Made by a program: the position numbers and the translations under genes. 64,000 nucleotides of DNA, taken from the IMG/VR virus record IMGVR_UViG_3300032213_001453. One strand, given 5' to 3'. The DNA comes from an uncultured virus (IMG/VR IMGVR_UViG_3300032213_001453) (taxonomy: Duplodnaviria > Heunggongvirae > Uroviricota > Caudoviricetes). A model generated the notes under the pieces. The model made no database searches and had not been told where the DNA came from. It saw nothing but the letters and a program-made list of their open reading frames with translations. Positions 842 to 27,637 of the stretch are shown here, one piece after another. Position 1 is the stretch's first letter. The number at the start of each line of letters is the position of its first letter.

Positions 842-958
842 AATTATGTACTCAATTATGTACCTAAATAGGTACCTAATTATCCGGGCGCAATTCTCCG
901 CGAAAAGACAGCGGAGCGCCCGTCCTAATTATGTAGCTGATTATGTACATAATTAGGG
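842..958. repeat. AT-rich 12-bp tandem repeats flanking a GC-rich hairpin (886-921)
   Basis: AATTATGTACTC/AATTATGTACCT/AAATAGGTACCT units; hairpin GGGCG..CTCCGC..GCGGAG..CGCCC. Confidence 0.8.
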
Positions 959-1006
959 GGCTAAAAATAAATGGCCACCTAATTAGGCAGCCATTTATCT
1001 TGCTAC

Positions 1007-1561
1007 TTATGTCAGAGATTTTATGGCATCATTTGCCCAAGAGAATAAACGATCACGAAGACTTTCCATTTCTTCATAATACTTATTCTCCCCATCTTCA
1101 TCATCGAAACTCATAAGAGGATAATTACTGTCGAAGATTTCTTCCATCATAATTTCCTCCCCGTCTTTCGTGACTCTAATGCCGCAGAAACACATACCCG
1201 GTTCATCCCAAAAATGAATAAAAGTAAGTTCGGGGAACATCTCAGAAATCTTATCGTAACCAGTAAGAGGAGGATTCCACGGAGAATCAAAGGAATAAGT
1301 AATCTGCCCAGTATCTCCAAAGTTCTCTCCAGACATTTCGATGGAAGATTCTGCCCACTTTGTGCCCCAGTTATTTATGCACCATTCATACCCGCCAGAA
1401 TTGTAGCCCTCTAAAGACTCAAATTCTTTAGGCATAGGAATAAGAGTCCGAAGAAACGAATCAGTCTTTTCGGGATCATTAGCCGCTGCTCTACCCGCAA
1501 GAACTCTCAGAGTAATTGTAGGACCGTCAATGACGACTTTATTGTAGCACCAATTAGGCAT
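1007..1561 (-). CDS. DUF1281/YubB ferredoxin-like domain protein
   Basis: Motifs MPNWCxN, YEWCINNWGTKW, FDSPWNPP, DEPGMCFCG; GGAGG RBS before ATG at 1561. Confidence 0.7.
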   Translation of the reverse strand: MPNWCYNKVVIDGPTITLRVLAGRAAANDPEKTDSFLRTLIPMPKEFESLEGYNSGGYEWCINNWGTKWAESSIEMSGENFGDTGQITYSFDSPWNPPLTGYDKISEMFPELTFIHFWDEPGMCFCGIRVTKDGEEIMMEEIFDSNYPLMSFDDEDGENKYYEEMESLRDRLFSWANDAIKSLT

Positions 1562-1697
1562 TTTTATCCTCCAGTTTATCTGAACGCATAACGGCAGAAC
1601 TAACCCATTCTCCATCTGGCATTTCTAAGAAACATTGAGCGCAAACTCCACCCTCAACTTCTTCTGTATCACCACAGATTTCACAATTATCAGGCAT
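1554..1697 (-). CDS. small Cys-rich protein (47 aa, two CxxC)
   Basis: MPDNCEIC...CAQC; overlaps both neighbours in operon fashion. Confidence 0.5.
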   Translation of the reverse strand: MPDNCEICGDTEEVEGGVCAQCFLEMPDGEWVSSAVMRSDKLEDKNA

Positions 1698-1963
1698 TAT
1701 GACTCTCCCATACAAATTAGGCAGAAGTATTTCACTTCTTTATCTACAGAATGATCTAGAACATCTGAATAGCAAATCATGTGATCTTTCTCGAAATACT
1801 CTCCACAAGCATCACAAGCAACTTCACCTAGAAGAATAGTGGGATCACAATCCTCACAACTACCGTTGATCCAATCCGGCCATTCTCCGGCATCAGTTTC
1901 TCGGCCACAAGTATCGCAACTTCTAACGTCGGCTTTTACCCAATCCATTGAGTCAGGCATCAT
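1697..1963 (-). CDS. Cys-rich putative Zn-binding protein
   Basis: Four CxxC motifs. Confidence 0.55.
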   Translation of the reverse strand: MMPDSMDWVKADVRSCDTCGRETDAGEWPDWINGSCEDCDPTILLGEVACDACGEYFEKDHMICYSDVLDHSVDKEVKYFCLICMGES

Positions 1964-2180
1964 AGTTCACTTTCTTGGGGGTAGGAATAGCGGGATTCTT
2001 CTCGCTCCAATGTTCCTCAAACATTTTGACAGTTTGAGCAACTTTTCTTTCAGCAGACTCTTTCTCCATAGAAATAAGTTCTAACTGTCGCCAAACTGGA
2101 ATAATAGAAAGCAAATGACGAAACTCTTGTTCCATCTTTGTCTTTTCACCATTCGTGTATTTACCGTATTCCCAAGACAT
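1953..2180 (-). CDS. hypothetical protein
   Basis: GGAGG RBS before ATG at 2180; operonic. Confidence 0.55.
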   Translation of the reverse strand: MSWEYGKYTNGEKTKMEQEFRHLLSIIPVWRQLELISMEKESAERKVAQTVKMFEEHWSEKNPAIPTPKKVNYDA

Positions 2181-2185
2181 GATAA

Positions 2186-2401
2186 CTAAGCCTCCAAGCA
2201 TTCTTTGTGAAAGTAGCGGATAAGAAAACGGGAAAGATGATCTTTCCAAACTTCTTTAGCAACAATCGGGTAATCAAACCTGAGATGAACTACGGAATCG
2301 AAACTACTAACAAAACCTGTGCGGGGAAAGAATTCGTCACATTTATCACAAATGTACAATTCGTCTAGGTTTGTTGATTCTGTGATCTCTACCTGAAACA
2401 T
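2186..2401 (-). CDS. hypothetical protein (CxxC ... HxxC)
   Basis: ORF coupled to the upstream gene; GGAGG RBS. Confidence 0.55.
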   Translation of the reverse strand: MFQVEITESTNLDELYICDKCDEFFPRTGFVSSFDSVVHLRFDYPIVAKEVWKDHLSRFLIRYFHKECLEA

Positions 2402-2610
2402 CAGATGTAACCTCCAAGTCCAATAGATTCCAATACATCAAACGGAACATCATTGTAATCATACAATGCCATAGCACAACAACATTCCACTTCCATTTCA
2501 TCCTCAAACCAATCTCGCCACGGAGCGTCAGCGATAGAGGCAGAACTAAGCCCCAATTTGGAGATGAGACAACCATCAACTTCTGCCATGAACTTCTGAA
2601 AATCAGTCAT
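2401..2610 (-). CDS. hypothetical acidic protein
   Basis: GAAAGG RBS before ATG at 2610. Confidence 0.55.
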   Translation of the reverse strand: MTDFQKFMAEVDGCLISKLGLSSASIADAPWRDWFEDEMEVECCCAMALYDYNDVPFDVLESIGLGGYI

Positions 2611-2794
2611 TCTCAATAACCTTTCCGGGATAAATTGCGGGCATGAATTGCTCTGGATTATTACGACGATACTCATCGTAATTTCTATTCTGAAAATTAG
2701 TCCATAACATTGTCACAAACATTACGGAAATAATAGCCAGAAAGATTGCTGAAGCCTTTGTGATTGTGTTCAGTTTGTTATCCATAAATGCCAA
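2603..2794 (-). CDS. small membrane protein
   Basis: One hydrophobic helix; first gene of the leftward operon. Confidence 0.45.
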   Translation of the reverse strand: MAFMDNKLNTITKASAIFLAIISVMFVTMLWTNFQNRNYDEYRRNNPEQFMPAIYPGKVIEND

Positions 2795-2950
2795 TTTAGC
2801 CGCTGTAACCTGTCTGTGTCAAAAGTTTCTATAGGAACTTCGGTTAGACCCGGGCTTCTAAAATGGGGGCTTATAAGACCCTTTTTAGAAACTAATGTTA
2901 GTTATTGGATTAGAAATCTGAAAGACCCCTTATAAACCTAAATAGGAATA

Positions 2951-3103
2951 GAATTATGCACTAAACTATCAACCTATTTATGTACCTAATTTTACGGGCA
3001 CAAGACTCCGCCAAAGAGCAGCGGAGTGCCCGCCATAATTATGTACCTAATTATGTTCCTAATTAGGTACGTATTTATGTAGCTATTTATGTACATAACT
3101 ATG
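2951..3103. repeat. AT-rich 12-bp tandem repeats flanking a GC-rich hairpin (2995-3032)
   Basis: 3037-3096 = AATTATGTACCT AATTATGTTCCT AATTAGGTACGT ATTTATGTAGCT ATTTATGTACAT. Confidence 0.85.
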
Positions 3104-3115
3104 GGGGCAATGATG

Positions 3116-3142
3116 AAGCCCCCGCCACAGGAGCGGGGGCTT
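3116..3142 (-). terminator. probable terminator hairpin
   Basis: AAGCCCCCGC...GCGGGGGCTT downstream of 3187..3462. Confidence 0.6.
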
Positions 3143-3186
3143 ATTTATGCGCCTAGTGAGGTACCTCTCTAGGTCTTAGGTTAGGC

Positions 3187-3462
3187 TCAAACCTTCGCAG
3201 CGCGAATGCGAACCTGCGGGACTCCCGCCGTGTCGTAATCGATACGGCAGTCATCGTTCCGCACGTGTCGCCAGTGCTTGCGAATGATCTGAGACACCGC
3301 CGAGCGTGAAGCCTTCGGGACATTCCCGAAGGTCTCGCGGAGGATGATCGCCTGACCCGCCTTCACCTTTTTCAGCGAAGCCGCTAGGTCGGGGTTGATC
3401 TCCACCTTGCGCCCGCGAGGGGAAACCACCACCTCGTTAGCGTCAATGAATTCATCAGCCAT
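3187..3462 (-). CDS. small basic protein, paralogue of 4017..4289
   Basis: MADEFI..EVVVSPRGRKVEI...IRKHWRHVR...RIDYD.AGVPQVR shared; GGAGGTG RBS. Confidence 0.8.
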   Translation of the reverse strand: MADEFIDANEVVVSPRGRKVEINPDLAASLKKVKAGQAIILRETFGNVPKASRSAVSQIIRKHWRHVRNDDCRIDYDTAGVPQVRIRAAKV

Positions 3463-3490
3463 TTATGTTCACCTCCCTTCCGTTGGTGTG

Positions 3491-3506
3491 TGTTTCACGT
3501 GAAACA
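3491..3506. promoter_or_regulatory. parS: parS site (perfect consensus)
   Basis: TGTTTCACGTGAAACA, the canonical chromosomal ParB-binding palindrome. Confidence 0.85.
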
Positions 3507-3558
3507 CCGCCCCGTTCGGGCCTGCCCCGTTCGGTATGCCTTCATTATCGACCCCGAA

Positions 3559-3620
3559 CATGAACGGAAGGTAAACACAACCTTGCTTTCACCTAAAGAA
3601 AAAGCAAAAGGTAAGTGAAC
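3559..3620 (-). promoter_or_regulatory. PHO-box-like 11-bp-phased repeats upstream of a -10 element
   Basis: CATGAAC 3559, GGTAAAC 3570, AGTGAAC 3614, all in 11-bp phase. Confidence 0.5.
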
Positions 3621-3643
3621 GTCAGAACTGCCGGAAACATCGT

Positions 3644-3862
3644 TTATGCGCCAAATTATTTAGGGATTTATAAGCCCATTTATAAACCTAATTAGCGAAA
3701 TAGAAATGTACTAAATTATGTACATAATTATGTACCTAAATTGCTGGGCGTTTATGTTCCGGTAGGGCTGGAACATAAACGCCCACCTAATTATGTACCT
3801 ATTTAGGTATCCAATTAGCTGTCTATTTATGTGGCTATTTGGGTGGCTATTTATGTGCCTAT
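3644..3862. repeat. AT-rich 12-bp tandem repeats flanking a perfect hairpin (3746-3784)
   Basis: Six units at 3789-3860; hairpin GGGCGTTTATGTTCC-N9-GGAACATAAACGCCC. Confidence 0.85.
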
Positions 3863-3887
3863 TCGCAAGTTTCGGGGGGTTATGTCA

Positions 3888-3903
3888 AGTGACGGATGTC
3901 ACA
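3888..3903. promoter_or_regulatory. CRP/GlxR-type box (one mismatch)
   Basis: AGTGA-CGGATG-TCACA upstream of 4017..4289. Confidence 0.5.
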
Positions 3904-4016
3904 CATAATCGGGAAAATAATCGTTGTTTGGGGTAGACATGAGCCTGAGGTTCCGGTAGTGTTATCTACATGGAGTTGAGCAAGTCGCTCGGCTCACGAA
4001 TCAAGGAGAAGGAAAC

Positions 4017-4289
4017 ATGGCAGACGAGTTCATTAGTGCGGAAGAAGTTGTTGTTTCTCCCCGAGGCCGTAAGGTTGAGATCATGCCGGACCTAGCGGCA
4101 ACTCTCAAGAAACTGAAGGAAGGCCAAGCGATCCGCCTTTCCGAAACTTTCGGTGAAGTGTCGAAGGCTCACCGTTCGTCGGTGTCGCAGGTGATCCGTA
4201 AGCATTGGCGTCACGTCCGTGACGACGAGCCACGCATCGACTACGATCAGGCAGGCGTGCCTCAGGTTCGGGTGCGAGCCACACGATAG
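4017..4289 (+). CDS. small basic protein, paralogue of 3187..3462
   Basis: High visible similarity to 3187..3462; AAGGAG RBS. Confidence 0.8.
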   Translation: MADEFISAEEVVVSPRGRKVEIMPDLAATLKKLKEGQAIRLSETFGEVSKAHRSSVSQVIRKHWRHVRDDEPRIDYDQAGVPQVRVRATR

Positions 4290-4322
4290 CCTTTCCGCCG
4301 AGGCTATCCGGCTCCCCGATAG

Positions 4323-4354
4323 AAAGGCCCCCGGTTCCGCCACCGGGGGCCTTT
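4323..4354. terminator. intrinsic terminator (bidirectional-looking)
   Basis: AAAGGCCCCCGGT-N6-ACCGGGGGCCTTT. Confidence 0.8.
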
Positions 4355-4401
4355 CGTTTACCGGGCTATTTATTTACATTCTTATAAGGCTAGTTGGGAA
4401 C

Positions 4402-4535
4402 CTAATTATGAAAATACACGCACACTCAATTAGGCACCTAATTATGTGCCTAATTTTGCGGGTGCAAAAGTGTGCGATGAAGCTGCACACGGGCACCCGC
4501 CCTAATTATGTACCTATTTGGGAACATAATTGGGG
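4402..4535. repeat. AT-rich 12-bp repeats flanking a GC-rich hairpin (4458-4500)
   Basis: AATTAGGCACCT AATTATGTGCCT ... AATTATGTACCT; GCGGGTGC..GTGTGC..GCACAC..GCACCCGC. Confidence 0.75.
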
Positions 4536-4573
4536 GGACAATTATGAAGCCCCTCCGAAGAGGGGCCGCATAA

Positions 4574-5074
4574 TTAGAAGCCTAATTCGGTGAGGCGTCC
4601 CCATGCCCCTTCCGGCATACTTATGTACCTATCTGTGTCCCACATCATTTCGTTGAGGAGTTGGATCTCTTCGTCGATTTCGTTCTGTCGGGAGATTTCC
4701 ATCTGCTGTTCGATCCGGCGATCCCATCCAATTTGTTCGTAGCGACGTTCGTCGCTGATGAGTCCGTCTCCCATGTCGGCAAGGATGTTGAGGAGACTGA
4801 AGGCACGCTCTTCCCATTTGCCCATTTCCTCACGTTCCTGAAAGTCGATCAGTCGCCCGTTGAGAACCTGAGCGCAGTAGTGAGACTTGGCAGCCTTGAT
4901 GTGGATAACTTCCAGCACGTTCCCGTCGTCGTACATGGCGAGGGATGTGATGGGGAGAATCTCGGCGCTGTAGAACACCTTGGTGAATGTCTTCATGATG
5001 TGGCGGGCGACGATTGAGAAGTTCTCTCGCCCGACGTTTCCGATGGTGCCACCGATGAGTTCGGTACCGTACAT
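4574..5074 (-). CDS. hypothetical protein (166 aa)
   Basis: GGAGG RBS before ATG at 5074; acidic C-terminus. Confidence 0.65.
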   Translation of the reverse strand: MYGTELIGGTIGNVGRENFSIVARHIMKTFTKVFYSAEILPITSLAMYDDGNVLEVIHIKAAKSHYCAQVLNGRLIDFQEREEMGKWEERAFSLLNILADMGDGLISDERRYEQIGWDRRIEQQMEISRQNEIDEEIQLLNEMMWDTDRYISMPEGAWGRLTELGF

Positions 5075-5168
5075 AATCAGCCTCCGTGGTTGTGGGGAGC
5101 CGTTCTCCCCAACAAGTAAGACGGTATCACGGATGGGCGGTGGGCGCACATCGAAACGGGCCATTCTA

Positions 5169-5186
5169 GGTGAACTTTAGGTGAAC
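5169..5186 (-). promoter_or_regulatory. PHO-box-like direct repeat
   Basis: Minus strand reads GTTCACC-TAAA-GTTCACC (11-bp period). Confidence 0.6.
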
Positions 5187-5393
5187 AAATCTGAGCCAGA
5201 AAACTGGCCCATCCGGGGAAAATTATGTGGCTCTTATAATCTTTTTTTTGGAACATAATTAGGAATACAATTATGAACATAAAGACTCAGATAGGTATGT
5301 GGATTGGATTATATGCTAAATTATGTACATAAATAGGAACCTAAACGGCGGACGAGCAAGCGTGCGATGGAGTGGGTGGCGAGCACCCGCAAA

Positions 5394-5431
5394 AAGTTAT
5401 CCACAGGCTCCGAAGAACCTGTGGATAACTT
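5394..5431 (-). terminator. terminator hairpin built from two inverted DnaA boxes
   Basis: AAGTTATCCACAGG-N10-CCTGTGGATAACTT with a minus-strand T run; TTATCCACA at 5397, TGTGGATAA at 5420. Confidence 0.75.
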
Positions 5432-5435
5432 CTGG

Positions 5436-5801
5436 TCAGTCTACGACGATTGCGATTTCGTCAGGCCCGAACACGCCAGTCTTGACGTAGTAGGTCACTA
5501 GCCAAGTCTTGAGAGCCATGCTCTGAGTTTGTTCGTTGGTGGTGGCTCGGCCAAGGTCCGATTCCGTGGCTCGGTAGCAGTCACCCTTGGCGGAGTGATC
5601 CCGACGACGTAGGGCCGGATTCTTGACGACAGCCGGAGCCAGTCGGGGGAGTTTGTGAATCTGGCCCGAAGCGATTGCGGCTTCGATGTCTGGCCGACGG
5701 ACTCGGGCCAGAGCCAGAGCGTGATCGACTGCGGCTAGTTGGGCCTTGGTTGGTTTCTTGGTCGGAGTGGCTACCGACTTGGTGTAGAGGCTGATTGCCA
5801 T
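5436..5801 (-). CDS. basic protein, member of a 3-paralogue family
   Basis: PT(K/R)KPTKA...(R/K)VRRP(D/E)xEA...RRRD(H/Y)...D.GRA...YYV..GV shared with 6335..6709 and 7237..7605; appears leaderless. Confidence 0.8.
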   Translation of the reverse strand: MAISLYTKSVATPTKKPTKAQLAAVDHALALARVRRPDIEAAIASGQIHKLPRLAPAVVKNPALRRRDHSAKGDCYRATESDLGRATTNEQTQSMALKTWLVTYYVKTGVFGPDEIAIVVD

Positions 5802-5822
5802 AGGTGCATTATTGCGAACCTA

Positions 5823-5884
5823 AGTGAACGAATGGTGTCGTGATGGTAAACGGAAGGTAATTTGTAGGTGAACATCAGGTGAAC
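5823..5884 (-). promoter_or_regulatory. PHO-box-like array of six 11-bp units
   Basis: AGTGAAC 5823, GGTGTCG 5834, GGTAAAC 5845, GGTAATT 5856, GGTGAAC 5867, GGTGAAC 5878. Confidence 0.7.
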
Positions 5885-6031
5885 AAACTCTCCTCGTAGA
5901 TTGGCTCCTGCGGGCCTCTGAGGGTGTCGGATGATGGGTAGGTGCGGGCGATTCTGCGGGCCGTCAGAGACGATTCTAGGGGCCTCTCACGGGGAATTCA
6001 CTTTCATGCATGATTATGCAGAGGGGCATTG

Positions 6032-6047
6032 TGTGACGTTTGTCACA
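6032..6047. promoter_or_regulatory. CRP/GlxR-type box
   Basis: TGTGA-CGTTTG-TCACA, perfect consensus, intergenic. Confidence 0.6.
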
Positions 6048-6334
6048 TCAGATTTTGATTGTGTACTAAATTAGGTACATAAATACGGCGAAGAAAGCCG
6101 GACGAGCAAGCGAGCGATGGAGTTACCGGGCTGTGCGCCCGTCCCGGGCCTTCAAAATGGGTCCTTTTAATCTTTTTTTCTGAGTATAATTTGAAACATA
6201 GATTGGGACATAAATTATGTTTTCCCTGCATAGAATACGAAAATGTACTAAATCTCGGTATATTCTATCCCCGTTGTTGCAGGGCGAGCAAGCGAGCGAG
6301 GGAGTCGGGGCGGAGCACCCTCGCTCGCTGCCTG

Positions 6335-6709
6335 TCAATCGTCGTCCACCACGATGGCCAACTCATCCTCACCGATGACGCCGGTAGCGACGTAGTACGT
6401 CGTGAGCCATGTCTTCGCTGCCATGCTCATCGTCTGAGGGTTGGTGCTCGCTCGCCCCATGTCGGCAGCGGTGAGCGTGTAGGCGTGAGCGTCGGTGCGG
6501 TAGTCACGTCGGCGGCGTCCGGCGTCCTTCACTTCGGCGGCGGTGAGCGTGGTGAGTTTGTGGAATCCACCGCGAGCGATGAATGCCTCAATGTCGGGGC
6601 GACGAACCCTAGCGAGCGCTAAAGCGTGCTCAGCGGCGGCGAGCGCTGCCTTCGTGGGTTTGCGGGTCGGGGTGGCACTGCTCTTGCGGTACATTCGGAC
6701 GGTGCTCAT
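6335..6709 (-). CDS. basic protein, member of the 3-paralogue family
   Basis: Paralogy to 5436..5801; GAAAGG RBS before ATG at 6709. Confidence 0.8.
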   Translation of the reverse strand: MSTVRMYRKSSATPTRKPTKAALAAAEHALALARVRRPDIEAFIARGGFHKLTTLTAAEVKDAGRRRRDYRTDAHAYTLTAADMGRASTNPQTMSMAAKTWLTTYYVATGVIGEDELAIVVDDD

Positions 6710-6818
6710 TTGGAGCCTTTCTGTATGGGTTTTTAGGAACATACTCAACTGCTGAGGGAAATCTAGTCGGTGCTACAAGGGCGAGCAAGCGAGCGAGGGA
6801 GTCGGGGCGGAGCACCCG

Positions 6819-7085
6819 CTAGGGACGTTCCAAACCAGCGTGAGCGACTGCTATGGCCCTCAGTACGTTCATACCGGGAAAGGCTAGGAACGTAACCTCG
6901 TTGATGATTTCGCCAGCACGCTCGTTCATCCGAATGATGGAGAAAGCGACGGCCCCACTTGGGAGCCACGCGAACGGATGAAGGATGATGTCGGGGGCGT
7001 CAGAAAACCCGTAGTTCTCACCTTGCCCTACCCACTCGGCGCACGTATCGAATTCAGAAATGGAATCGGTCAGGGAGTCAAACAT
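6819..7085 (-). CDS. hypothetical protein (88 aa)
   Basis: GAAAGG RBS before ATG at 7085; fills one repeat interval. Confidence 0.65.
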   Translation of the reverse strand: MFDSLTDSISEFDTCAEWVGQGENYGFSDAPDIILHPFAWLPSGAVAFSIIRMNERAGEIINEVTFLAFPGMNVLRAIAVAHAGLERP

Positions 7086-7188
7086 AGGAACAACCTTTCG
7101 GGATAGGTACTCAACTAGGGACGATACTAGAACGGAAGATGGAGGGCGAGCAAGCGAGCGAGGGAGTCGGGTGCGGAGCACCCGCAAA

Positions 7189-7227
7189 AAGTTATCCACA
7201 GGCCCGACTGCTGCCTGTGGATAACTT
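7189..7227 (-). terminator. terminator hairpin built from two inverted DnaA boxes
   Basis: AAGTTATCCACAGG...CCTGTGGATAACTT; boxes at 7192 and 7216. Confidence 0.75.
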
Positions 7228-7236
7228 CGGTTTCGA

Positions 7237-7605
7237 TCAATCGGGATCGACAACTACGGCGAACTCATCGGCAGCGAGGACACCGGCTTCGACATAGTAG
7301 TTCATGATCCAGATTCGGAGTGCCATAGAGACGGTCTGTTCCGATGCCGTGGCCCGTCCCTTGTCACCTTCGGTGACGATGTAGGCAGATCCCTTGCCGG
7401 TGTGATCACGACGGCGACGGCCTGAATCTCGAACCTCGGCGTCGGTGAGTTCGGGGAGAGAGTGGAAGGCACCGGATCGAAGGAACGCTTCCAGTTCGGG
7501 ACGGCGAACCTTCGACAGAACTAGAAGGTAGTCGGCGTATTCCAGTATGGCCTTCGTCGGCTTGCGGGTTGGGGAAATGCTGGCCTTGCGGTAGATCCGG
7601 ATCAT
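7237..7605 (-). CDS. basic protein, member of the 3-paralogue family
   Basis: Paralogy; GAAAGGGA RBS before ATG at 7605. Confidence 0.8.
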   Translation of the reverse strand: MIRIYRKASISPTRKPTKAILEYADYLLVLSKVRRPELEAFLRSGAFHSLPELTDAEVRDSGRRRRDHTGKGSAYIVTEGDKGRATASEQTVSMALRIWIMNYYVEAGVLAADEFAVVVDPD

Positions 7606-7626
7606 GTCGATCCCTTTCGGTTGGTG

Positions 7627-7642
7627 TGTTTCACGTGAAACA
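7627..7642. promoter_or_regulatory. parS: parS site (perfect consensus)
   Basis: TGTTTCACGTGAAACA. Confidence 0.85.
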
Positions 7643-7688
7643 CTCGGACACCGGCTTGCTTGCCGATAGGTACATCGTTGCAAACCCA

Positions 7689-7739
7689 AGTGAACGGAAG
7701 GTGAACTAGGAGCGAACTGAGGGGAAAGATTAGGTGAAT
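7689..7739 (-). promoter_or_regulatory. PHO-box-like array of 11-bp units
   Basis: AGTGAAC 7689, GGTGAAC 7700, AGCGAAC 7711, GGGAAAG 7722, GGTGAAT 7733. Confidence 0.65.
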
Positions 7740-7756
7740 CATTAGGTGCATCTAGG

Positions 7757-7772
7757 TGTGACAAGCGTCACA
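7757..7772. promoter_or_regulatory. CRP/GlxR-type box
   Basis: TGTGA-CAAGCG-TCACA, perfect consensus. Confidence 0.6.
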
Positions 7773-7784
7773 CGAAATGAGGGG

Positions 7785-7932
7785 TTTTCCACAGGGGTAC
7801 CTTATGGGCTGCGGCGCAAGGGGGGTCCGATCGATCCTGAGGCGTTCTAGGGGGGTCTGAGAGGATCGGCTTTCTGGGGGTTTTCCACAGTTTCCACAGC
7901 CCTGTGGATAACTTTGCTGGGGCTGTGGATAA
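7785..7932. promoter_or_regulatory. DnaA-box cluster
   Basis: TTTTCCACA 7785 and 7881, GTTTCCACA 7890, TGTGGATAA 7903 and 7924, then a short AT-rich patch. Confidence 0.75.
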
Positions 7933-8054
7933 CTTTCTTATAAAGTATAAGATTATTCGCATACTCAATCTGGGACGGCTGCGCCACCTTCCAAGAAGGG
8001 CGAGCAAGCGAGCGAGGGATTCGGGCTGTAGGCCCGCCTGACTAGCGAATAGGA

Positions 8055-8080
8055 AAGGCCCCGCAAGATTGCGGGGCCTT
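8055..8080. terminator. terminator hairpin
   Basis: AAGGCCCCGCAA-GA-TTGCGGGGCCTT. Confidence 0.7.
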
Positions 8081-8144
8081 GTGCGGGTGATTCTGTTGCC
8101 ACGCTCCCTAGCGCCGACTCTCAGTCAGTCAGAACGAACGCCGA

Positions 8145-8318
8145 TCAGTAATCAGCATCCCAGCGCTCTCCCGCATAATCGGGATCGAAAGCGTCAGGGG
8201 CTGAATCACCGGAGAGGCTGTACGCGCATGATGCGTCGTGACAGTCCCAGCAACGTCCGCCGTTCCACAACGTGGCAACGCTGTCGCCACACTCGGAACA
8301 CGTCTGCAGAGTATCCAT
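8145..8318 (-). CDS. small Zn-finger-like acidic protein (57 aa)
   Basis: CSEC...CWDC; GGAGGTG RBS. Confidence 0.65.
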   Translation of the reverse strand: MDTLQTCSECGDSVATLWNGGRCWDCHDASCAYSLSGDSAPDAFDPDYAGERWDADY

Positions 8319-8439
8319 TTTCACCTCCCTCCGGGCCTTGGTTGGCATCATTGTAAACACACGCTCAAGGGGAACACAAGTACCTACCCAAACAGCAGGG
8401 CGAGCAAGCGAGCGAGGGAGTCGGGCAGGAGCGCCCTTC

Positions 8440-8604
8440 TTAGCCGTCGAATTCCGGCCAGTAATCCTCTCCGTGGCCGTAGGGATCAGGCTCGGACAAT
8501 TCATCCTGATCTATCTGGCCAAGACAAACAGAGCACAAACCCTGAGCGAAGATTTCGCGGGAGCAGTAGAAACAGCAGTCGATTCCACCAGTACGTTCGT
8601 TCAT
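8440..8604 (-). CDS. small Zn-finger-like acidic protein (54 aa)
   Basis: MNERTGGIDCCFYC...CSVC; AAGGAG RBS; below the ORF-track cut-off. Confidence 0.6.
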   Translation of the reverse strand: MNERTGGIDCCFYCSREIFAQGLCSVCLGQIDQDELSEPDPYGHGEDYWPEFDG

Positions 8605-8707
8605 GAGGGTTCTCCTTTATCTAGGTACTAAAGACTGAGACTAATCTAGTCCCTATTGGCAGGGCGAGCAAGCGAGCGAGGAATTCGGCCCGGAGCGCCC
8701 TTTCGGC

Positions 8708-9022
8708 TCACACGGAATCGGCTAGAGTGTTGCGAGTGCCGGGGCGGTAGAGAGCAAGTTTCTTATAGTAGTTCCCGATAACGAACGAATTCCAAGACGG
8801 CGTGAAGAATACCGTGTGAGTCACCTTGTCTTCGCAGTAGGCCACCTCATCGAATTGGAGCGAGTCGTCGGCGTTAAGCGTAACGATCACGTCTCCGATG
8901 CGAGCGTCACAAGCGCGCGCTCCCCAAACCTTCCAATAGCCGGGTTCTCCTGCCTTAAGTTCTTGCCCTTCTTGCGCTGCGAGTCGTGCCGCTGCGAGTC
9001 CGTCAAGTTGATCTATAGCCAT
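8708..9022 (-). CDS. hypothetical protein (104 aa)
   Basis: GAAGGGG RBS before ATG at 9022; TTGACA-N16-TATACT promoter upstream. Confidence 0.65.
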   Translation of the reverse strand: MAIDQLDGLAAARLAAQEGQELKAGEPGYWKVWGARACDARIGDVIVTLNADDSLQFDEVAYCEDKVTHTVFFTPSWNSFVIGNYYKKLALYRPGTRNTLADSV

Positions 9023-9164
9023 TTCGTTCCCCTTCACCGTTTGGCTGACTATTTGCCAGCTCTGTTTGTAAGTATACATCAAACCTAGAGTGTGTCAAGA
9101 ACCTAATCCGCAGGGCGAGCAAGCGAGCGAGGGGCCGGGTCGGAGCGCCCTCGCTCGCCCCTTC

Positions 9165-9380
9165 TCACTCTCCCAGTCCGCAAGCGAGGCGGAATCGTTC
9201 GGGATCGAATCGGGGGTTCTGGGTGACGAGGAAGCAGGAGAGTGACTCCACTGCTCGCCGGAATCCCTCCTCCTCCATCTCGGCGTCTCCGTGGCCCCAG
9301 TCGCCGCGATCCTCAGTGCGGATCGCGTCAACTGAGACGGCGAGCATTCGGGCCAGTTCGTTGTAGTCCTTGCGTGTCAT
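9165..9380 (-). CDS. conserved small phage protein (MTRKDY...NPRFD..RF..AC type)
   Basis: Motif pattern typical of small phage proteins; GAGGG RBS; TATAAT promoter upstream. Confidence 0.65.
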   Translation of the reverse strand: MTRKDYNELARMLAVSVDAIRTEDRGDWGHGDAEMEEEGFRRAVESLSCFLVTQNPRFDPERFRLACGLGE

Positions 9381-9519
9381 GGTTCCCTCTCTTGGGGCCA
9401 GTGGGTCCGGCTCCGTGATCATTATAAGCACACACTAAATAGAGATGCAAGTACCTACCCAATTAGCAGGGCGAGCAAGCGAGCGAGGGGCGCTGGTCGG
9501 AGCGCCAGCGCCCCTCTTC

Positions 9520-9621
9520 TCATCTCCCTCGCTTGGGATCGGTGTACCACTGCCAGAGGGCCAGCAGTGGGAAGGAGAGCCAGAACATGGCAGCGATGAC
9601 ATCACCGAGGTAGACGCGCAT
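9520..9621 (-). CDS. 33-aa membrane peptide
   Basis: MRVYLGDVIAAMFWLSFPLLALWQW...; TGATG coupling to 9621..9710. Confidence 0.45.
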   Translation of the reverse strand: MRVYLGDVIAAMFWLSFPLLALWQWYTDPKRGR

Positions 9622-9710
9622 CAGAGGCTCACAATCTTTCGGGCGATGATGTAGCCGAGGAGTAATCCCGGGGGAGTTGCTAGGGCGAGAGTGATGAGTG
9701 CGTGAATCAT
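9621..9710 (-). CDS. 29-aa membrane peptide
   Basis: MIHALITLALATPPGLLLGYIIARKIVSL; GAAAGGG RBS. Confidence 0.45.
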   Translation of the reverse strand: MIHALITLALATPPGLLLGYIIARKIVSL

Positions 9711-9848
9711 GATTCCCTTTCTGCTAGCGGGCCGTTCCCGCTATGCGGACAGTCTGACATACATTCCAGCGTGACACAAGTACCTACCTAATCGGTAGGG
9801 CGAGCAAGCGAGCGAGGGGGCTGGCCGGAGCGCCAGCCCCCTTCTCTC

Positions 9849-10124
9849 TCACTTCTGGGGGCGTGAGACGTGGACTGTGGGGAGTTCGCATCGTGAGACT
9901 GTCACGACGCCCAGAGGGCCTTCCCAGAGGGTGTGGTTTCCGTTGGTGTGGAGGCAGCGGTAGCCACCCTCTGCCAGCGAGCGATTCCATTCGATGGCAT
10001 TGTTCACGTGGGCAGGGTTGGTGTGTTCGGGGCGATCATTGATGAAGAACTCAACAACGTCGGGGTGAACGGCGTGGGCGATGTTTCCGGTGTATGGGTT
10101 GGCGATGGAGCGGTGGGTGTTCAT
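9849..10124 (-). CDS. hypothetical protein (91 aa)
   Basis: GGAGG RBS before ATG at 10124; TTGACG promoter upstream. Confidence 0.65.
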   Translation of the reverse strand: MNTHRSIANPYTGNIAHAVHPDVVEFFINDRPEHTNPAHVNNAIEWNRSLAEGGYRCLHTNGNHTLWEGPLGVVTVSRCELPTVHVSRPQK

Positions 10125-10435
10125 GGTGTGGGCCTCCGTAGGTCCGTTGTGGTTGGTATGGACATCATTGCAGATCTGACTAGGTACGTCAATACGTGCT
10201 GGCACGTATTCCATTCTGGGGGATTCTCCCCCCATTGCTGCAGGGCGAGCAAGCGAGCGATGGTGCTGGCCTGAGCGCCAGTTGTGTGTGGGTGGTTTAG
10301 GTTTTCCCAGATCGTGTAAAAACGGGGCAGCATTGTTTTGGTGTGTATTAAAGTTTTTGTGTTTTTTGGGTTGAAAAAACCCCAGTTGTTGGCTGGGGTT
10401 TTGGGGGGGTGTTGTGTTGTTTTGTGGTGTTGTGG

Positions 10436-10870
10436 TTATGTGGTTGTCCATGCGTTGAGTAGTGCTTTGGTTACCATTTCGGTGGAGAGTTCGATGTGTT
10501 CGTAGTTGCGTTCTACGAGTGCGTTTGTTTGTGTTTCGTTGTATTGGCCGTGTGAGCTTGAGTGTACGATTTCTGTGTCTACGAGTGATTGTTCGGGGGA
10601 GAGGATGACGTGGACGAGTTCGTGTACGAGTATTTTTTCGATGGTTTCGTTGTTGTGTCGGACTGCTGATGGGAGGTACCATTTGATGTTTGCGTCCATG
10701 TATTGCCATTGGGCGTGTGTGGTTGCGGTGACTTTGTGTTCTTCAAGGTCGTAGTATGTGTCTAGGTATGTGTGTTGGATGTCCCAGTGGTTGAGGCCGA
10801 GGCGGGTTTGCCAGATTGGGGCGAGTTTGTCGATGAGTTTTGTGATTCTTGTGTTGGGGTTTTCTGGCAT
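10436..10870 (-). CDS. HEXXH Zn-metallopeptidase-like protein
   Basis: LVHELVHV motif; W..RLGL..W N-terminus; TGCTATAAT promoter. Confidence 0.65.
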   Translation of the reverse strand: MPENPNTRITKLIDKLAPIWQTRLGLNHWDIQHTYLDTYYDLEEHKVTATTHAQWQYMDANIKWYLPSAVRHNNETIEKILVHELVHVILSPEQSLVDTEIVHSSSHGQYNETQTNALVERNYEHIELSTEMVTKALLNAWTTT

Positions 10871-10926
10871 GGTGTTGTCTTTCTGTGTGTGTTTATTATA
10901 GCATAGTTGTTGTGGGGGCTTTCCGG

Positions 10927-10940
10927 CGAACATTTGTTCG
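10927..10940. promoter_or_regulatory. LexA (Gram-positive/actinobacterial SOS) box
   Basis: CGAAC-ATTT-GTTCG over the -35 region of the 10436..10870 promoter. Confidence 0.6.
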
Positions 10941-10948
10941 TTTTGTTG

Positions 10949-11533
10949 TTAGGCGTGGACCTTTTGGAGCCATCGTGTCATTCTTTGGAGGTTTTCTGTT
11001 GGGGCGTATGTGATGAATGTGCCGTCGATGGAGTCGTATTTTTGGGCTTTTGCGTAGCGTAATCTTTTTAGGCTATTAACTCTACCCATGTGGGTCCATA
11101 GACCTCTCTGGCGGGCTTCTAGGACCCAATGGGAGGCTTCTGGACCGAGCTTCCAGTCGGTGTCGCCTCCGGTGAATACCGCATCGGCGTTATCTGGAAT
11201 ATGTGTGCATCCGTTTTGTAGCACATATGCTACTTTGTAACCTAAATCTTTTACTACTTCGGACCATTGGTACCAAAGTTCGTCGGTTTCTTTGGCGTCA
11301 GCTACTACATCGGGTATTACGGCGAAAAGGCAGCCCGGTTCGTCTTGATAACGTACAAGATTCTTTTCCCAACGTGATTGTTGCCAGTTTGCTGAGAAAC
11401 ATCCGTTATCTAACGCCCATATGGCATTGGGTACGACTTTTTCTCCTGATCTTGGAGTGATCATTTGGCCAAAATGACCTTCACTTATCTGTTCTTTCAC
11501 CTCTTTAGTGCAGGCTGGCGTCAGATATAGCAT
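10949..11533 (-). CDS. TGT/DpdA-like TIM-barrel protein (putative)
   Basis: LDNGCF, PDVV, HMGRV and DSIDG motifs resemble tRNA-guanine-transglycosylase-like phage proteins. Confidence 0.45.
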   Translation of the reverse strand: MLYLTPACTKEVKEQISEGHFGQMITPRSGEKVVPNAIWALDNGCFSANWQQSRWEKNLVRYQDEPGCLFAVIPDVVADAKETDELWYQWSEVVKDLGYKVAYVLQNGCTHIPDNADAVFTGGDTDWKLGPEASHWVLEARQRGLWTHMGRVNSLKRLRYAKAQKYDSIDGTFITYAPTENLQRMTRWLQKVHA

Positions 11534-15582: not shown

Positions 15583-16102
15583 GTATCCATCTAAGAATTT
15601 AGATCAAGTATCTATTCCAGTATTAGAACATCTTTCTCTTCCAGAAAGAGAAGAGCTTGCTCTTGATATGAGAAAAGAATGCTGGAATGTAAATGGATTA
15701 GGTATTTCCGCAATTCAAATTAATAAGCCCTTCCAGATGTTTGGTATAATTAATCCAAATAAAAAAGATCTAATGTGGATATGTGATCCACATATTGAAT
15801 CTTATTCAGGCTTTGAAATTTTCAATGAAGGATGTCTATCTATTCCAGATTATTTTTGGCCTATTAAAAGGCCGAAATCTATTTGTATATCATATTATGA
15901 TATTTATGGGAATAAACACTGCAAGACCTTCAAGGGACTTTACGCTAGGATAGTCCAACATGAACTGGATCATTTAGATGGTATTCTCATCCCGGATTTT
16001 CTGACAGAAGAGCAGAGAGAAGAGTTCCTTCGACATTTTAAGGCAAAGTCAAAAATTTCAGAGTATAATGCTCCGGAAATAGATATGCCTTGGGATGTTT
16101 AA
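15572..16102 (+). CDS. def: peptide deformylase
   Basis: GLGISAIQI, EGCLS and QHELDH signature motifs. Confidence 0.95.
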   Translation: MIVKYPSKNLDQVSIPVLEHLSLPEREELALDMRKECWNVNGLGISAIQINKPFQMFGIINPNKKDLMWICDPHIESYSGFEIFNEGCLSIPDYFWPIKRPKSICISYYDIYGNKHCKTFKGLYARIVQHELDHLDGILIPDFLTEEQREEFLRHFKAKSKISEYNAPEIDMPWDV

Positions 16103-16166
16103 CTCAGTTGGTCAGAGTGTCTCGCTTACACCGAGAAAGTCGGGGGTTCGAATCCCTCAACATCCA
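16093..16166 (+). tRNA. tRNA-Val(UAC)
   Basis: Cloverleaf; anticodon arm TCTCG-CT-TAC-AC-CGAGA; TTCGAAT T-loop; overlaps the def stop. Confidence 0.9.
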
Positions 16167-16168
16167 CT

Positions 16169-16366
16169 ATGGACAATATAGAAAAAGATTACAATTTTAA
16201 ACTCACGGAGATGGAAGCAGCTTTTCTAAACGCTGCCGTTGTAGACTTCTTCCACAAGATGAAGACAGCAGCGGAAGAAAAGTCTGTAGTTCTCTTTACA
16301 GATGATAGATATCTTGTTGCAAAAAGTCTTTGGAACAAGATTGAGAAAGAAATCCCAATTATATAG
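16169..16366 (+). CDS. hypothetical protein
   Basis: ORF between tRNA and HNH gene. Confidence 0.5.
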   Translation: MDNIEKDYNFKLTEMEAAFLNAAVVDFFHKMKTAAEEKSVVLFTDDRYLVAKSLWNKIEKEIPII

Positions 16367-16380
16367 GCTATAATGACTAT

Positions 16381-16728
16381 ATGATATATCGTGAATACAT
16401 TACGTCGGATGAGTGGAAAAAGCGCAAAGAGCGTTATTTTGAGAATCATCTTCGACGGTGTAGGGCTTGTGGCTCAGCCAAAAGGATTCACCTCCATCAC
16501 AAAACTTATAGACGACTTGGAGAAGAGCGGGACGCAGATTTAGTCCCGCTCTGTCATTTATGTCACTCAGCGCTTCACCGTAGACAAAGACAAAGTGGCC
16601 AGAATCTTTGGATTGCTACAGAGGCTTTTATTAGGAATAAAGAAAAAGCGAAGTCTCGGAAGAAAAAGAAGAAAAAGCAAGTTATAAAGAGAAAGTCAAG
16701 ATTGCATAAAAAAGAAACAAGATCGTGA
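16381..16728 (+). CDS. HNH endonuclease-like protein
   Basis: CRAC...HLHHKTY...DLVPLCHLCH. Confidence 0.8.
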   Translation: MIYREYITSDEWKKRKERYFENHLRRCRACGSAKRIHLHHKTYRRLGEERDADLVPLCHLCHSALHRRQRQSGQNLWIATEAFIRNKEKAKSRKKKKKKQVIKRKSRLHKKETRS

Positions 16729-16767
16729 TATAATCACGTCTTGAAAAAATAATTTCTAGGATCTTAT

Positions 16768-17571
16768 ATGATATATGCAAAAGTTATTGAAGATAGCATA
16801 ACAGCAGATGGGAAGCGTCTGACGACGATGGAAGTGCAAATGCACCGATTTGTCCTTGCTGAATTTAATACTCACAGAGTTTTTTCAAGAAATTCTGCGT
16901 CGTCTAGAGCGATACCTATTGAGAAGCAAATTGCGAAAATATTCAATCACCCGGCGTACCCAGTTTCTTGGGGAACTAATAAGTCGGGAATGCAGGCTGG
17001 CGAGCCTCTTGGTACAGCAGACGAAAGAAAAGCAAAAAGCATCTGGAAGAAGAGTTGCAAAAACGCCATTAAGTCCTCAAGAAAGCTTGAGAAACTTGGG
17101 GTTCATAAAGAAATAGCGAATAGAATCCTTGAGCCATATATGTGGCATACAGTTATTGTGACTTCAACTGAGTGGGATGGATTTTTCGAACAAAGGTGTA
17201 GTTACATGGCTCAGCCTGAAATTCGATTAGTTGCCAATGCTATGAGAGATGCCTACAAGAAGTCTGTGCCATTTTTGCTTATTGATGGAGAGATGCATCT
17301 TCCGTACATTCAGCCGGGAGAGTTTAATCTTCCAGATTATAAAAAAGCAAGAATATCTATTGCAAGATGTGCTAGAGTTTCTTACTTAACTCATGATAAT
17401 ATTTACTCAATTGAAAAAGACTTAGGTCTATTTGATAGACTTTGTACAGCAGATCCACCTCATTGGAGTCCAATGGAACACGTTGCAACTCCACTCACTG
17501 ATGAACTTGATCCATCAGGAAATTTTAATGGCTTTGCTCAGGTAAGACATAATTTACATTTGGTGTTCTAA
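16768..17571 (+). CDS. thyX: flavin-dependent thymidylate synthase
   Basis: EFNTHRVFSRNSASSRAIP, AQPEI, ARVSY and HWSPMEH motifs of phage ThyX. Confidence 0.85.
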   Translation: MIYAKVIEDSITADGKRLTTMEVQMHRFVLAEFNTHRVFSRNSASSRAIPIEKQIAKIFNHPAYPVSWGTNKSGMQAGEPLGTADERKAKSIWKKSCKNAIKSSRKLEKLGVHKEIANRILEPYMWHTVIVTSTEWDGFFEQRCSYMAQPEIRLVANAMRDAYKKSVPFLLIDGEMHLPYIQPGEFNLPDYKKARISIARCARVSYLTHDNIYSIEKDLGLFDRLCTADPPHWSPMEHVATPLTDELDPSGNFNGFAQVRHNLHLVF

Positions 17572-17762
17572 TGGTTAAATCAACTTTATGTGCTAGTAAA
17601 GATCATAAAAAATGTGAAGAAAAACATTGTGAATGTTCATGCCACCACACTTCTGATTGTAATTGTTTTGCTTGCAGAATAAGAACTATATCTTTTGGTG
17701 ATGTTCCGGGTGGGTATAAGTCTAGTAATCCTTCAACTTCAAATAAGCTTGAAGACTTCTAG
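17571..17762 (+). CDS. Cys/His-rich small protein
   Basis: Many Cys and His residues in 63 aa. Confidence 0.45.
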   Translation: MVKSTLCASKDHKKCEEKHCECSCHHTSDCNCFACRIRTISFGDVPGGYKSSNPSTSNKLEDF

Positions 17763-17846
17763 GAAGGGTGGCAGAGCGGACGAATGCGTCGGTCTTGAAA
17801 ACCGTTGTGGGGAAACTCACCGTGGGTTCGAATCCCACTCCTTCCA
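17762..17846 (+). tRNA. tRNA-Ser(UGA)
   Basis: Long variable arm; anticodon loop CT-TGA-AA. Confidence 0.9.
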
Positions 17847-17896
17847 CGCTTTTAATATAATTTTGTGATATAATACGAATGTTCTTAGGAGGAATA

Positions 17897-18955
17897 GTGG
17901 GATATTACCTAATCGATAATCCGCCAGCAAGTAAGCAATTCTGGCCATCAAGAAATAATGGGCTTAGTGGTGGTGTAGTCATTCATACTACCGAAGGCGC
18001 AGGCGGAGATACTGCAGCAGAAAATACTGCTTCGTTTATTTCACGGCGTTCAGATCCGGGCAGCTATCACATGATAGTCGATACAGATTCTTCTGTGGCC
18101 ATGATGCCTGATGATTATGTTGCGTTTGGCGTTGCAGCTTCCGGATTCAATAGTACCTGTTGGATGATTGCTATTGCAGCACAATCAGCCGCTCTTGATC
18201 CAAATAGCCCCTATACTCAAGCGGAAGTTGATCGACTGGGCGCAGAGATTGTTGCCTTCTGGCAGCGCAATGGAATTAATATCGCAGAAGCTTCGCAGTT
18301 TATTGGCGAGGAAGTTAAGGATCGCCCCGGACTTGCTCATCATGGCGACGTTCAGCCTTGGGACAGAAGTGATGCATGGAGTCGTCGTGAAGATCGTTGG
18401 ATCTTTGATTCTATGCTCCTTCAGGCTATTGAACGTCATTCTGGTTCTGTACCCGCACAGCCTGTTGAGCCTACTAAGCCAGTTCCTGTTCTTCCTGAGT
18501 CAATTTGGAAGATTGGTTCTACTGGAGATAAGGTTCGCGAGATTCAAAAAGTTGTTGGTGCAAATCAAGATGGAGTCTTTGGGCCTGCTACTGAATCTGC
18601 TGTCAAGCAGTGGCAGGCAAATCTTAAGATCTCCTCCGATGGTATTTGGGGTCCTGCTACTGAACAAGCAACACATGATCTTTTTGTATTCCTGAATAAT
18701 CTTCAGGCTGTTGCTCCTAGCAATCCATTCTTCGATGCACTTAATGATGCAAGAAGTCAGGTTCTCAGGGAAGGTTCGACTGGAGGGTCTGTGAAGATTC
18801 TTCAGACCGGCTTGAATGGTAGGGGATATCCTCTTGTTGGAGATGGTATCTTTGGTCCTGCAACATCTAACGCTGTCCGCAAATTTCAATCTGACAACGG
18901 ACTTGCCGTTGATGGTGTTGTTGGTCCCCAGACATGGACATCTCTTCTCTCTTAA
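17897..18955 (+). CDS. endolysin: N-acetylmuramoyl-L-alanine amidase with two peptidoglycan-binding domains
   Basis: VIHTTE, SYH and HGD amidase motifs; DG.FGP.T..AV..(W/F)Q...DG..GP.T repeats. Confidence 0.9.
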   Translation: MGYYLIDNPPASKQFWPSRNNGLSGGVVIHTTEGAGGDTAAENTASFISRRSDPGSYHMIVDTDSSVAMMPDDYVAFGVAASGFNSTCWMIAIAAQSAALDPNSPYTQAEVDRLGAEIVAFWQRNGINIAEASQFIGEEVKDRPGLAHHGDVQPWDRSDAWSRREDRWIFDSMLLQAIERHSGSVPAQPVEPTKPVPVLPESIWKIGSTGDKVREIQKVVGANQDGVFGPATESAVKQWQANLKISSDGIWGPATEQATHDLFVFLNNLQAVAPSNPFFDALNDARSQVLREGSTGGSVKILQTGLNGRGYPLVGDGIFGPATSNAVRKFQSDNGLAVDGVVGPQTWTSLLS

Positions 18956-18961
18956 AATAAG

Positions 18962-22291: not shown

Positions 22292-22327
22292 AAAATATAG
22301 TATAATGATTTTGAACATTGGACGCTT

Positions 22328-23023: not shown

Positions 23024-23033
23024 TGGAGATCTT

Positions 23034-24292: not shown

Positions 24293-24322
24293 TCCGTATT
24301 GGCGGTGCTATGATGCTTCTGT

Positions 24323-24397
24323 GCCTGAGTAGCTCAGTGGTAGAGCACTCGCCTTGTAAGCGAGCGGTCAAGGGTTCAAGTCCCTTCTTAGGCTCCA
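24323..24397 (+). tRNA. tRNA-Thr(UGU)
   Basis: CTCGC-CT-TGT-AA-GCGAG; encoded CCA. Confidence 0.9.
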
Positions 24398-24398
24398 G

Positions 24399-25475: not shown

Positions 25476-25480
25476 CATAA

Positions 25481-26121: not shown

Positions 26122-26159
26122 TCCGAACGAAGCGCGAAGTCCGTGTGAAGGCAGTGCAA

Positions 26160-26191: not shown

Positions 26192-26200
26192 TGGAGAAAT

Positions 26201-27636: not shown

Positions 27637-27637
27637 A

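Follow-up and report, generated by a model that had tools for sequence, protein, structure and literature searches.

The 64,000-nucleotide (nt) stretch of the uncultured tailed virus IMGVR_UViG_3300032213_001453 analysed here, referred to as the window, carries exactly two copies of one 18-bp palindrome, GTGTTTCACGTGAAACAC, in the leaders of two small genes, p91 and p122. The best-supported reading of the sequence data is that these palindromes are genuine, selected orphan copies of the chromosomal partition site parS, residing on a lineage of ~96-kb freshwater siphophages in which neither ParA nor ParB is detectable. We consider it probable that the ParB protein of the host binds at these sites, and we put at roughly 0.45 the probability that such binding goes together with a hitch-hiking function, in which the phage genome would be carried along by the partition machinery of the host chromosome. 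The window represents 64,000 nt of a phage estimated at ~96 kb; all scans of this phage refer to the window, with ~32 kb lying beyond their reach.

The core of the palindrome is the 16-mer TGTTTCACGTGAAACA, which occurs exactly at 3491-3506 and 7627-7642 of the 64-kb window and fits the chromosomal-type parS consensus TGTTNCACGTGAAACA at 16 of 16 positions in both places. By chance, base composition would give 2.3e-5 exact occurrences in the window, and a first-order Markov model 1.6e-5. No further match with up to three mismatches exists elsewhere in the window; at this tolerance 0.26 matches are expected by chance, and two of 100 shuffled sequences yielded two. The half-site GTTTCAC is not enriched in the window: against an expectation of 7.7 it occurs seven times, and the two full sites account for four of these. 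Among the literature matches listed, the 16-mer is used in ParB/parS work on Bacillus, Caulobacter, Vibrio, Mycobacterium, Streptococcus, Hyphomonas and Burkholderia. The first-pass annotation had reported two perfect parS sites and taken them for canonical ParB sites of bacterial chromosomes; the window search bore out their sequence and coordinates, and the twofold 16/16 match together with the appearance of the 16-mer in papers on several phyla upholds the identification. According to excerpts of PMC7022226, ParB binds this 16-bp site, which is identical to that of chromosomal parS/ParB-CTP (cytidine triphosphate) complexes. In contrast to chromosomal parS, which in the same excerpts clusters near oriC beside parAB, the phage sites have neither gene in view.

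Comparison with related sequences makes it evident that the site has been kept by selection and not by chance. The loci L119 and L120, which share identical match figures and identical spacing and apparently belong to the same related phage, contain a p91 orthologue (68% amino acid (aa) identity) whose ATG is preceded, at a distance of 16 nt, by the identical 18-mer; outside the 18-mer the 120-nt leader of L120 shows no alignment with the window leader. Another run from the study (X2) supplied a contig that is 95% identical to the window over 2800-6310; it has a cluster of six substitutions at 3477-3487 directly beside the first site and the next one at 3540, with none listed at 3488-3539 (40 of the 545 differences being listed). 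In the closest near-complete relatives the site occupies a second placement: G003 (capsid 83% identical) carries the exact 16-mer and G006 (capsid 87% identical) the one-mismatch form TGTTTCATGTGAAACA, in either case immediately after the stop codon of a small gene, ahead of a terminator-like hairpin and 2-3 kb from the p91 genes. The gene preceding the site in G003 has no homologue in the window, and the placement in both relatives is non-homologous to that in the window. Conservation therefore extends to the site but not to its relation to gene starts, and a cis-acting DNA site fits this pattern better than a dedicated leader element.

The same comparisons bear on the idea that the sites are passengers, that is, parS brought in by accident on a fragment of a host chromosome or another replicon and functionless in the phage. 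Their location in a repeat-rich, cassette-like island of 53-58% GC within a phage of ~40% GC would suit such an origin. However, the 18-mer is exact where its flanks have wholly diverged and also beside the cluster of strain substitutions, a second placement exists in G003 and G006, and the family searches found no bacterial homologues of the genes flanking the sites, which together leave this explanation hardly credible.

No candidate reader of phage origin was recognised. The statement of the first-pass annotation that the window lacks parA and parB holds for the 78 open reading frames (ORFs) scanned against Pfam, none of which belongs to a ParB or ParA family, and ParB_N, HTH_ParB and AAA_31 (ParA) were found in none of the three near-complete relatives (G002, 100% complete; G003, 92%; G006, 94%), in searches that were positive in control genomes. 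Neither a self-contained ParABS system, with parB and parA on the same replicon, nor an element-encoded repressor of the ParB family, as in the KorB/OB type, was found in the window ORFs or in these relatives. P1, N15 and mycobacteriophages with parABS encode both ParA and ParB and have site sequences of their own, and their centromere-like sites serve episomal inheritance; in the lineage studied here, by contrast, neither gene turned up in the window ORFs or the three relatives. Given this lack of ParA and ParB, the chromosomal ParB of the host is the simplest reader of the sites. Lin and Grossman reportedly performed a plasmid-stabilisation experiment with parS in 1998. Tyrosine and serine recombinases were likewise found in none of the three relatives, and no integrase was found among the window ORFs; persistence of the phage, if any, would therefore need to be episomal. 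The earlier proposal that host ParB is hijacked is best supported as far as the presence of host-type parS without a phage ParB is concerned, whereas the purposes suggested for it (positioning or segregation, repression, titration) are not separable by sequence.

Orphan sites of this kind are common: among 50 IMG/VR records carrying the exact 18-mer (L001-L050, G050-G099), seven have and 43 lack ParB_N; among the 19 such records that are at least 90% complete, ParB_N is present in four and missing from 15. The 43 records without ParB_N include ten near-complete ones of 16.8-18.6 kb from one data set, four of which have inverted terminal repeats, as well as complete genomes of 74 kb and 116 kb with direct terminal repeats.

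We infer ParB binding, and with it all downstream consequences, from the identity of the sequence, the selection acting on it and the lack of detectable phage ParAB in the window and its relatives. On this basis we propose a hypothetical course of events in which (i) a dimer of host chromosomal ParB would bind each site on injected or replicating phage DNA; (ii) ParB would close into CTP-dependent clamps that spread across the adjoining early and iteron region; (iii) the clamps would couple the unintegrated phage genome to host ParABS, and possibly to SMC; (iv) the phage DNA would be positioned and inherited by daughter or resting cells while lysis is delayed, as in the strategy of phi29. Since ParB would then sit directly 5' of the ribosome-binding sites of p91 and p122, damping of these two genes would follow as a side effect.

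The kind of arrangement is already known from phi29. According to excerpts of PMC2731898 and PMC9437464, five parS sites are present in phi29, the segregation of its genome into the prespore involves host Spo0J, and Spo0A boxes (0A boxes) hold back its early promoters; as these excerpts describe the work of Meijer et al. 2005, both phi29 and Nf are virulent Bacillus phages with parS read by Spo0J. Measured against these accounts, the phage studied here is likewise classed as lytic, has no detectable ParB of its own and carries several copies of a ParB site of the host-chromosome type; host-type parS is combined with the lack of ParB and integrase in the window and, as judged from the relatives, beyond it. 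The differences lie in the phage and in the sites. Whereas phi29 is, in the same sources, a 19-kb protein-primed podovirus of a spore former for which spore entrapment has been tested, ours is a ~96-kb siphovirus from freshwater metagenomes that is known from sequence alone; and its sites, unlike those of phi29, are two perfect consensus sites located in 5' leaders (behind a gene in relatives). What is new is the lineage and habitat, the perfect consensus sites, their placement in untranslated regions, and the company of iterons and CRP-consensus-like palindromes. The literature on host parS carried by phages yielded nothing pertinent beyond phi29, and no phage-carried parS appeared among the titles listed for the 16-mer.

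A further parallel is offered by SGI1, in which, according to PMC10954446, two parS mimics bind the ParB of the IncC helper plasmid and stabilise SGI1. It too is a mobile element without ParAB of its own that carries two copies of the centromere site of another replicon; in contrast to this integrative mobilisable element, which in that account exploits a plasmid ParABS, the phage appears to exploit the chromosomal system. The same text reports that the mimics destabilise the helper plasmid dose-dependently. This would also be compatible with a decoy, in which the many parS copies of a replicating phage titrate host ParB, with its roles in SMC loading and ParA control, and so disturb host segregation and division in the course of takeover. 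Such a decoy shares the evidence for ParB binding with hitch-hiking, and no sequence feature separates the two; considering that there are only two sites per genome and that most relatives have none, we regard it as improbable.

Both genes behind the sites lie on the minus strand, with the ATG of p91 at 3462 and that of p122 at 7605, and each site stands immediately 5' of a ribosome-binding site. The two leaders align over ~110 nt and share the same order of elements, namely a GTTyACCTTCCGTTCA box, a GC hairpin, the 18-mer and then ACACCAAC-GAA-GGA. This alignment indicates that the two sites of the window are one duplicated module and not two independent events: judging by sequence, the duplication ran from the leader of p91 to that of p122, a gene of another family, or the other way round. 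Two sites in one window had been called very unlikely by chance in the first-pass annotation; this agrees with the ~2e-5 exact 16-mers expected, but the independence of the two copies was overstated, as they stem from one duplicated leader. The claim that the downstream genes come from different families is confirmed, p91 and p122 being unrelated, known only from metagenomes and without a match in Pfam or PHROG. As for the sites having been placed between a -10 element and the ribosome-binding site, the position directly 5' of the latter is correct, whereas the -10 is not established: a scan of 2800-8200 for consensus (sigma-70) promoters found five where 4.1 were expected, and promoter positions are not established because this is the level of chance. 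A terminator scan of the same region was likewise at chance level.

The leader position suggests that regulation might be the main role of host ParB, which from its place 21-28 nt before the start codons would block transcription or ribosome access at p91 and p122 and tie these early genes to the cell-cycle state of the host. The window sites and the L120 site all lie between the upstream region and the ribosome-binding site, an entire leader has been duplicated onto a gene of another family, and co-option of host factors is suggested by the CRP-consensus-like palindromes that these upstream regions also contain. Repression of genes by parS-bound ParB in some species is described in the excerpts of PMC7022226, in which P. 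aeruginosa ParB at the intergenic sites parS3 and parS4 represses the downstream genes; in B. subtilis, by contrast, loss of Spo0J leaves the expression of parS-adjacent genes unchanged according to the same source. The site of G003 and G006 follows a stop codon and is not ahead of a gene, which weakens the idea of a dedicated repressor that had been raised in the first-pass annotation, and the same effect comes from the lack of a site in front of p90, two p122 paralogues and all p91 genes of G003, G006 and G002. A mainly regulatory role is therefore unlikely in our view.

Alternatively, the palindrome could operate as RNA, forming a 7-bp hairpin in the 5' untranslated region that serves as an mRNA stabiliser or processing site. 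This hairpin is present in the predicted minimum-energy folds of both window leaders and in the predicted centroid fold of the L120 leader, and the window leaders exceed shuffled sequences in folding (z -2.7 and -3.1). However, any perfect palindrome gives such a fold, conservation is letter for letter with no compensatory change, and the L120 leader is not unusually stable (z -1.05). In addition, an Rfam scan of 2500-11000 returned sub-threshold matches alone, none of them at the parS sites. An RNA element is accordingly a very improbable explanation.

The proteins encoded behind the sites provide no link to ParB. The p91 family comprises 37 metagenomic cluster representatives as relatives and matches no Pfam or PHROG family; S14-P15-R16-G17-R18-K19 and R61-K62-H63 are invariant in it and W64 is near-invariant (the SPRGRK and RKHW motifs). 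The structural model of p91, with a predicted local distance difference test (pLDDT) score of 84, has an H-E-H-H-E-E order resembling a winged helix and a basic SPRGRK arm. Its best structural matches are the winged-helix domains of RepE and Stn1 (Z 4.8-4.9, a range that the tool describes as common, Z <8), and no PDB entry matched at E <= 0.001; these structural matches are weak, and the fold assignment is tentative. For p122, which has 38 metagenomic relatives and no Pfam or PHROG family, the model is very confident (pLDDT 94), yet it has no PDB match at E <= 0.001 either. The p122 family has three paralogues in the window and three to four in relatives. Megablast of 3000-8500 against cultured phages gave no match. 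Viral contigs yielded no relatives when searched with the three p122-family paralogues of the window or with p91 alone, and three loci when searched with an alignment of the p91 family; a metagenome search with a 10-sequence p122 alignment found six loci.

The features of p91 raise the question of whether a phage protein uses the palindrome as its operator, as p91 would in regulating itself; the match to parS would then reflect either convergence or competition with ParB at host parS. The site stands in p91's own leader in two phages, and the modelled winged-helix-like order, the basic SPRGRK arm and the best match, a RepE winged-helix domain on operator DNA (Z 4.9), would be in keeping with DNA binding. 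Against this, structural matches in that range are called common (Z <8), p90 and the p91 genes of G003, G006 and G002 lack such a site, convergence on parS at 16 of 16 positions is very unlikely, and the near-complete relatives have no helix-turn-helix of the ParB type. We consider a phage operator quite unlikely.

Several observations weigh against hitch-hiking on host ParB itself. A single duplicated module lies behind both window copies, and the relatives that bear the site independently are few (L119/L120 and G003/G006). The strain comparison, with 40 of 545 differences listed, bears on the first site only. In a survey of 47 related IMG/VR records with contigs of at least 10 kb, out of 80 fetched, the 16-mer was present with up to one mismatch in G003 and G006 only, and with up to two mismatches it is missing from the complete relative G002 and from the three closest cultured phages, all Stanwilliamsviridae (Comrade, StarPlatinum and Faust). 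Being absent from most relatives, the site is dispensable for this type of phage and is a trait of one subclade. A divergent reader protein could be encoded in the ~32 kb outside the window. Furthermore, no gene for lysogeny, a repressor or plasmid replication was recognised among the window ORFs scanned, and the genome looks virulent, with seven transfer RNA (tRNA) genes, ribonucleotide reductase, ThyX and peptide deformylase. Finally, ParB and the use of this parS are presumed for the host.

Table 1. Coordinates of the parS sites, their leaders, and neighbouring and other features of the window.
Feature	Position	Strand	Description
parS-1	3490..3507	.	GTGTTTCACGTGAAACAC, 28 nt upstream of the p91 start codon
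parS-2	7626..7643	.	18-bp palindrome identical to parS-1, 21 nt upstream of the p122 start codon
p91 leader and upstream module	3463..3582	-	GTTTACCTTCCGTTCA box, GC hairpin, parS-1, ribosome-binding site; aligns with the p122 leader
p122 leader and upstream module	7606..7725	-	duplicate of the p91 leader module
p91	3187..3462	-	91 aa, small basic protein; gene behind parS-1
p122	7237..7605	-	122 aa, no assigned function; gene behind parS-2
p90	4017..4289	+	divergently oriented p91 paralogue, 78% aa identity; without parS
p122 paralogue	5436..5801	-	53% aa identity; without parS; has the upstream box, not the parS leader
p122 paralogue	6335..6709	-	54% aa identity; without parS
12-bp iteron zone	851..6087	.	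CCTAATTATGTA on both strands, arrayed head to tail every 12 bp; surrounds parS-1 and p91/p90
GTGAC-N4-GTCAC palindrome	7758..7771	.	extended TGTGA-N6-TCACA; ~150-165 nt upstream of the p122 ATG
GTGAC-N4-GTCAC palindrome	3889-3902	.	exact match, before p90
GTGAC-N4-GTCAC palindrome	6033-6046	.	exact match
Glycosyltransferase genes (included in block)	18962-19642, 21539-22291, 22328-23023, 23582-24292, 26201-27373, 28586-29572		family matches

The surroundings of the sites (Table 1) are rich in repeats. At 4001-10000 the window forms a GC island (53-58% against ~40% for the phage) that contains only small genes of unassigned function, several of them in paralogous sets. The iterons are concentrated around the first site: 35 of the 37 window matches with up to two mismatches fall within their zone, where they occupy nearly all intergenic gaps, and 6.6 would be expected in the whole window. 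Variants of this TTATGT repeat of 12 bp also flank the p91-family genes of L120 and G003. The iteron zone may be a replication origin or a binding array for the small p91 and p90 proteins. We count the iteron arrays around the first site, together with the recombinase-less relatives, in favour of episomal carriage.

All three exact window matches of GTGAC-N4-GTCAC are inside the island. L120 and G003 have the same palindrome 110-160 nt upstream of their p91-family genes, and G006 has degenerate forms of it. Judged by its sequence, the extended form TGTGA-N6-TCACA may be a site for a host protein of the CRP family or a phage operator; it equals the CRP consensus quoted in PMC2156107. The CRP-consensus-like palindromes upstream of p90, p122 and the p91 genes of relatives may be placed comparably to the 0A boxes of phi29, which are sites for a host global regulator at early promoters in the excerpts of PMC2731898 and PMC9437464.

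Taken together, these elements allow a broader and rather doubtful reading, in which the early region is a module for lytic deferment and carriage in non-sporulating hosts. The lytic programme would be restrained by starvation-sensing CRP-family boxes at early promoters, and the 12-bp arrays with the small p91 and p90 proteins would form an iteron-based replicon that keeps the genome episomal. Through the orphan parS, host ParABS would partition this episome, giving a ParB-partitioned carrier state in freshwater actinobacteria. Since 15 of the 19 near-complete genomes with the 18-mer lack ParB_N, borrowing of the chromosomal centromere would, if this holds, be a general phage strategy and not a peculiarity of phi29.

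If host ParB does load at the sites, the trick known from phi29 would no longer be limited to a small podovirus of Bacillus: it would reach a large freshwater siphovirus that is uncultured, sites of perfect consensus where those of phi29 are degenerate, and possibly modes of delayed or carried infection other than spore entrapment. Together with the many viral records that have the 18-mer and no ParB_N, this suggests that the chromosomal partition machinery is a recurrent target of phages. Such recurrent targeting would bear on the persistence of virulent phages in slow-growing natural populations. The two short leaders also represent ready-made test pieces for ParB-dependent gene control.

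A second class of repeat, the GGGCGAGCAAGCGAGCGAGGG element, is present in at least ten copies at 6270-10279 (also at 5304-5373 and 6054-6123), set between the small genes. The copies are often followed by their own complement, giving a hairpin, and their translation, RSLARP, recurs in relatives. In contigs from other runs, 6321 is joined to 6776, 7997 or 8042, with the junctions falling exactly at GGGCGAGCAAGCGAGCGAGGG elements; the sides of these joints are short (24-28 letters) and flagged as unreliable. Such joints would delete a cassette with p122 and parS-2, which we take as a hint only. The elements may serve as boundaries for recombination in an array of gene cassettes.

The window belongs to a tailed phage of ~40% GC with portal, capsid, a 1988-aa tape measure and an amidase endolysin. 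Its metabolic genes encode a class II ribonucleotide reductase, ThyX and peptide deformylase, and many glycosyltransferases are also present. Capsid and portal are 51% and 42% identical, respectively, to those of 130-kb Streptomyces phages of the Stanwilliamsviridae, and related records in IMG/VR have lengths of 96-101 kb; G001 shares with the window only the part from 10607 onward. Among the sequencing runs, those of DNA that cover more than a minor part of the region carry the labels metagenome, freshwater or aquatic, and no RNA run is listed for it. Searches of genome contigs with the p91 family and with the capsid protein, made for host identification, were both empty. The relatives of the structural genes and the nearest bacterial look-alikes of the endolysin are leads toward a possible host among the Actinomycetota.

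The seven tRNA genes of the window lie at 16093-27708 (Val-tac, Ser-tga, Thr-tgt, Ile-tat, Lys-ttt, Leu-taa and Arg-tct) and all read A-ending codons, a set that suggests a host of higher GC than the phage. Seven glycosyltransferase genes form a block at 18962-29572 that also includes a methyltransferase and a PglD-like acetyltransferase. Immediately ahead of the capsid gene, 39609-42626 encodes a 1005-aa protein that matches prohead proteases weakly and in addition has a Hva1_TUDOR domain and a ferritin-like domain (E 7e-16); the latter two domains are unusual as passengers on a head-assembly protein.

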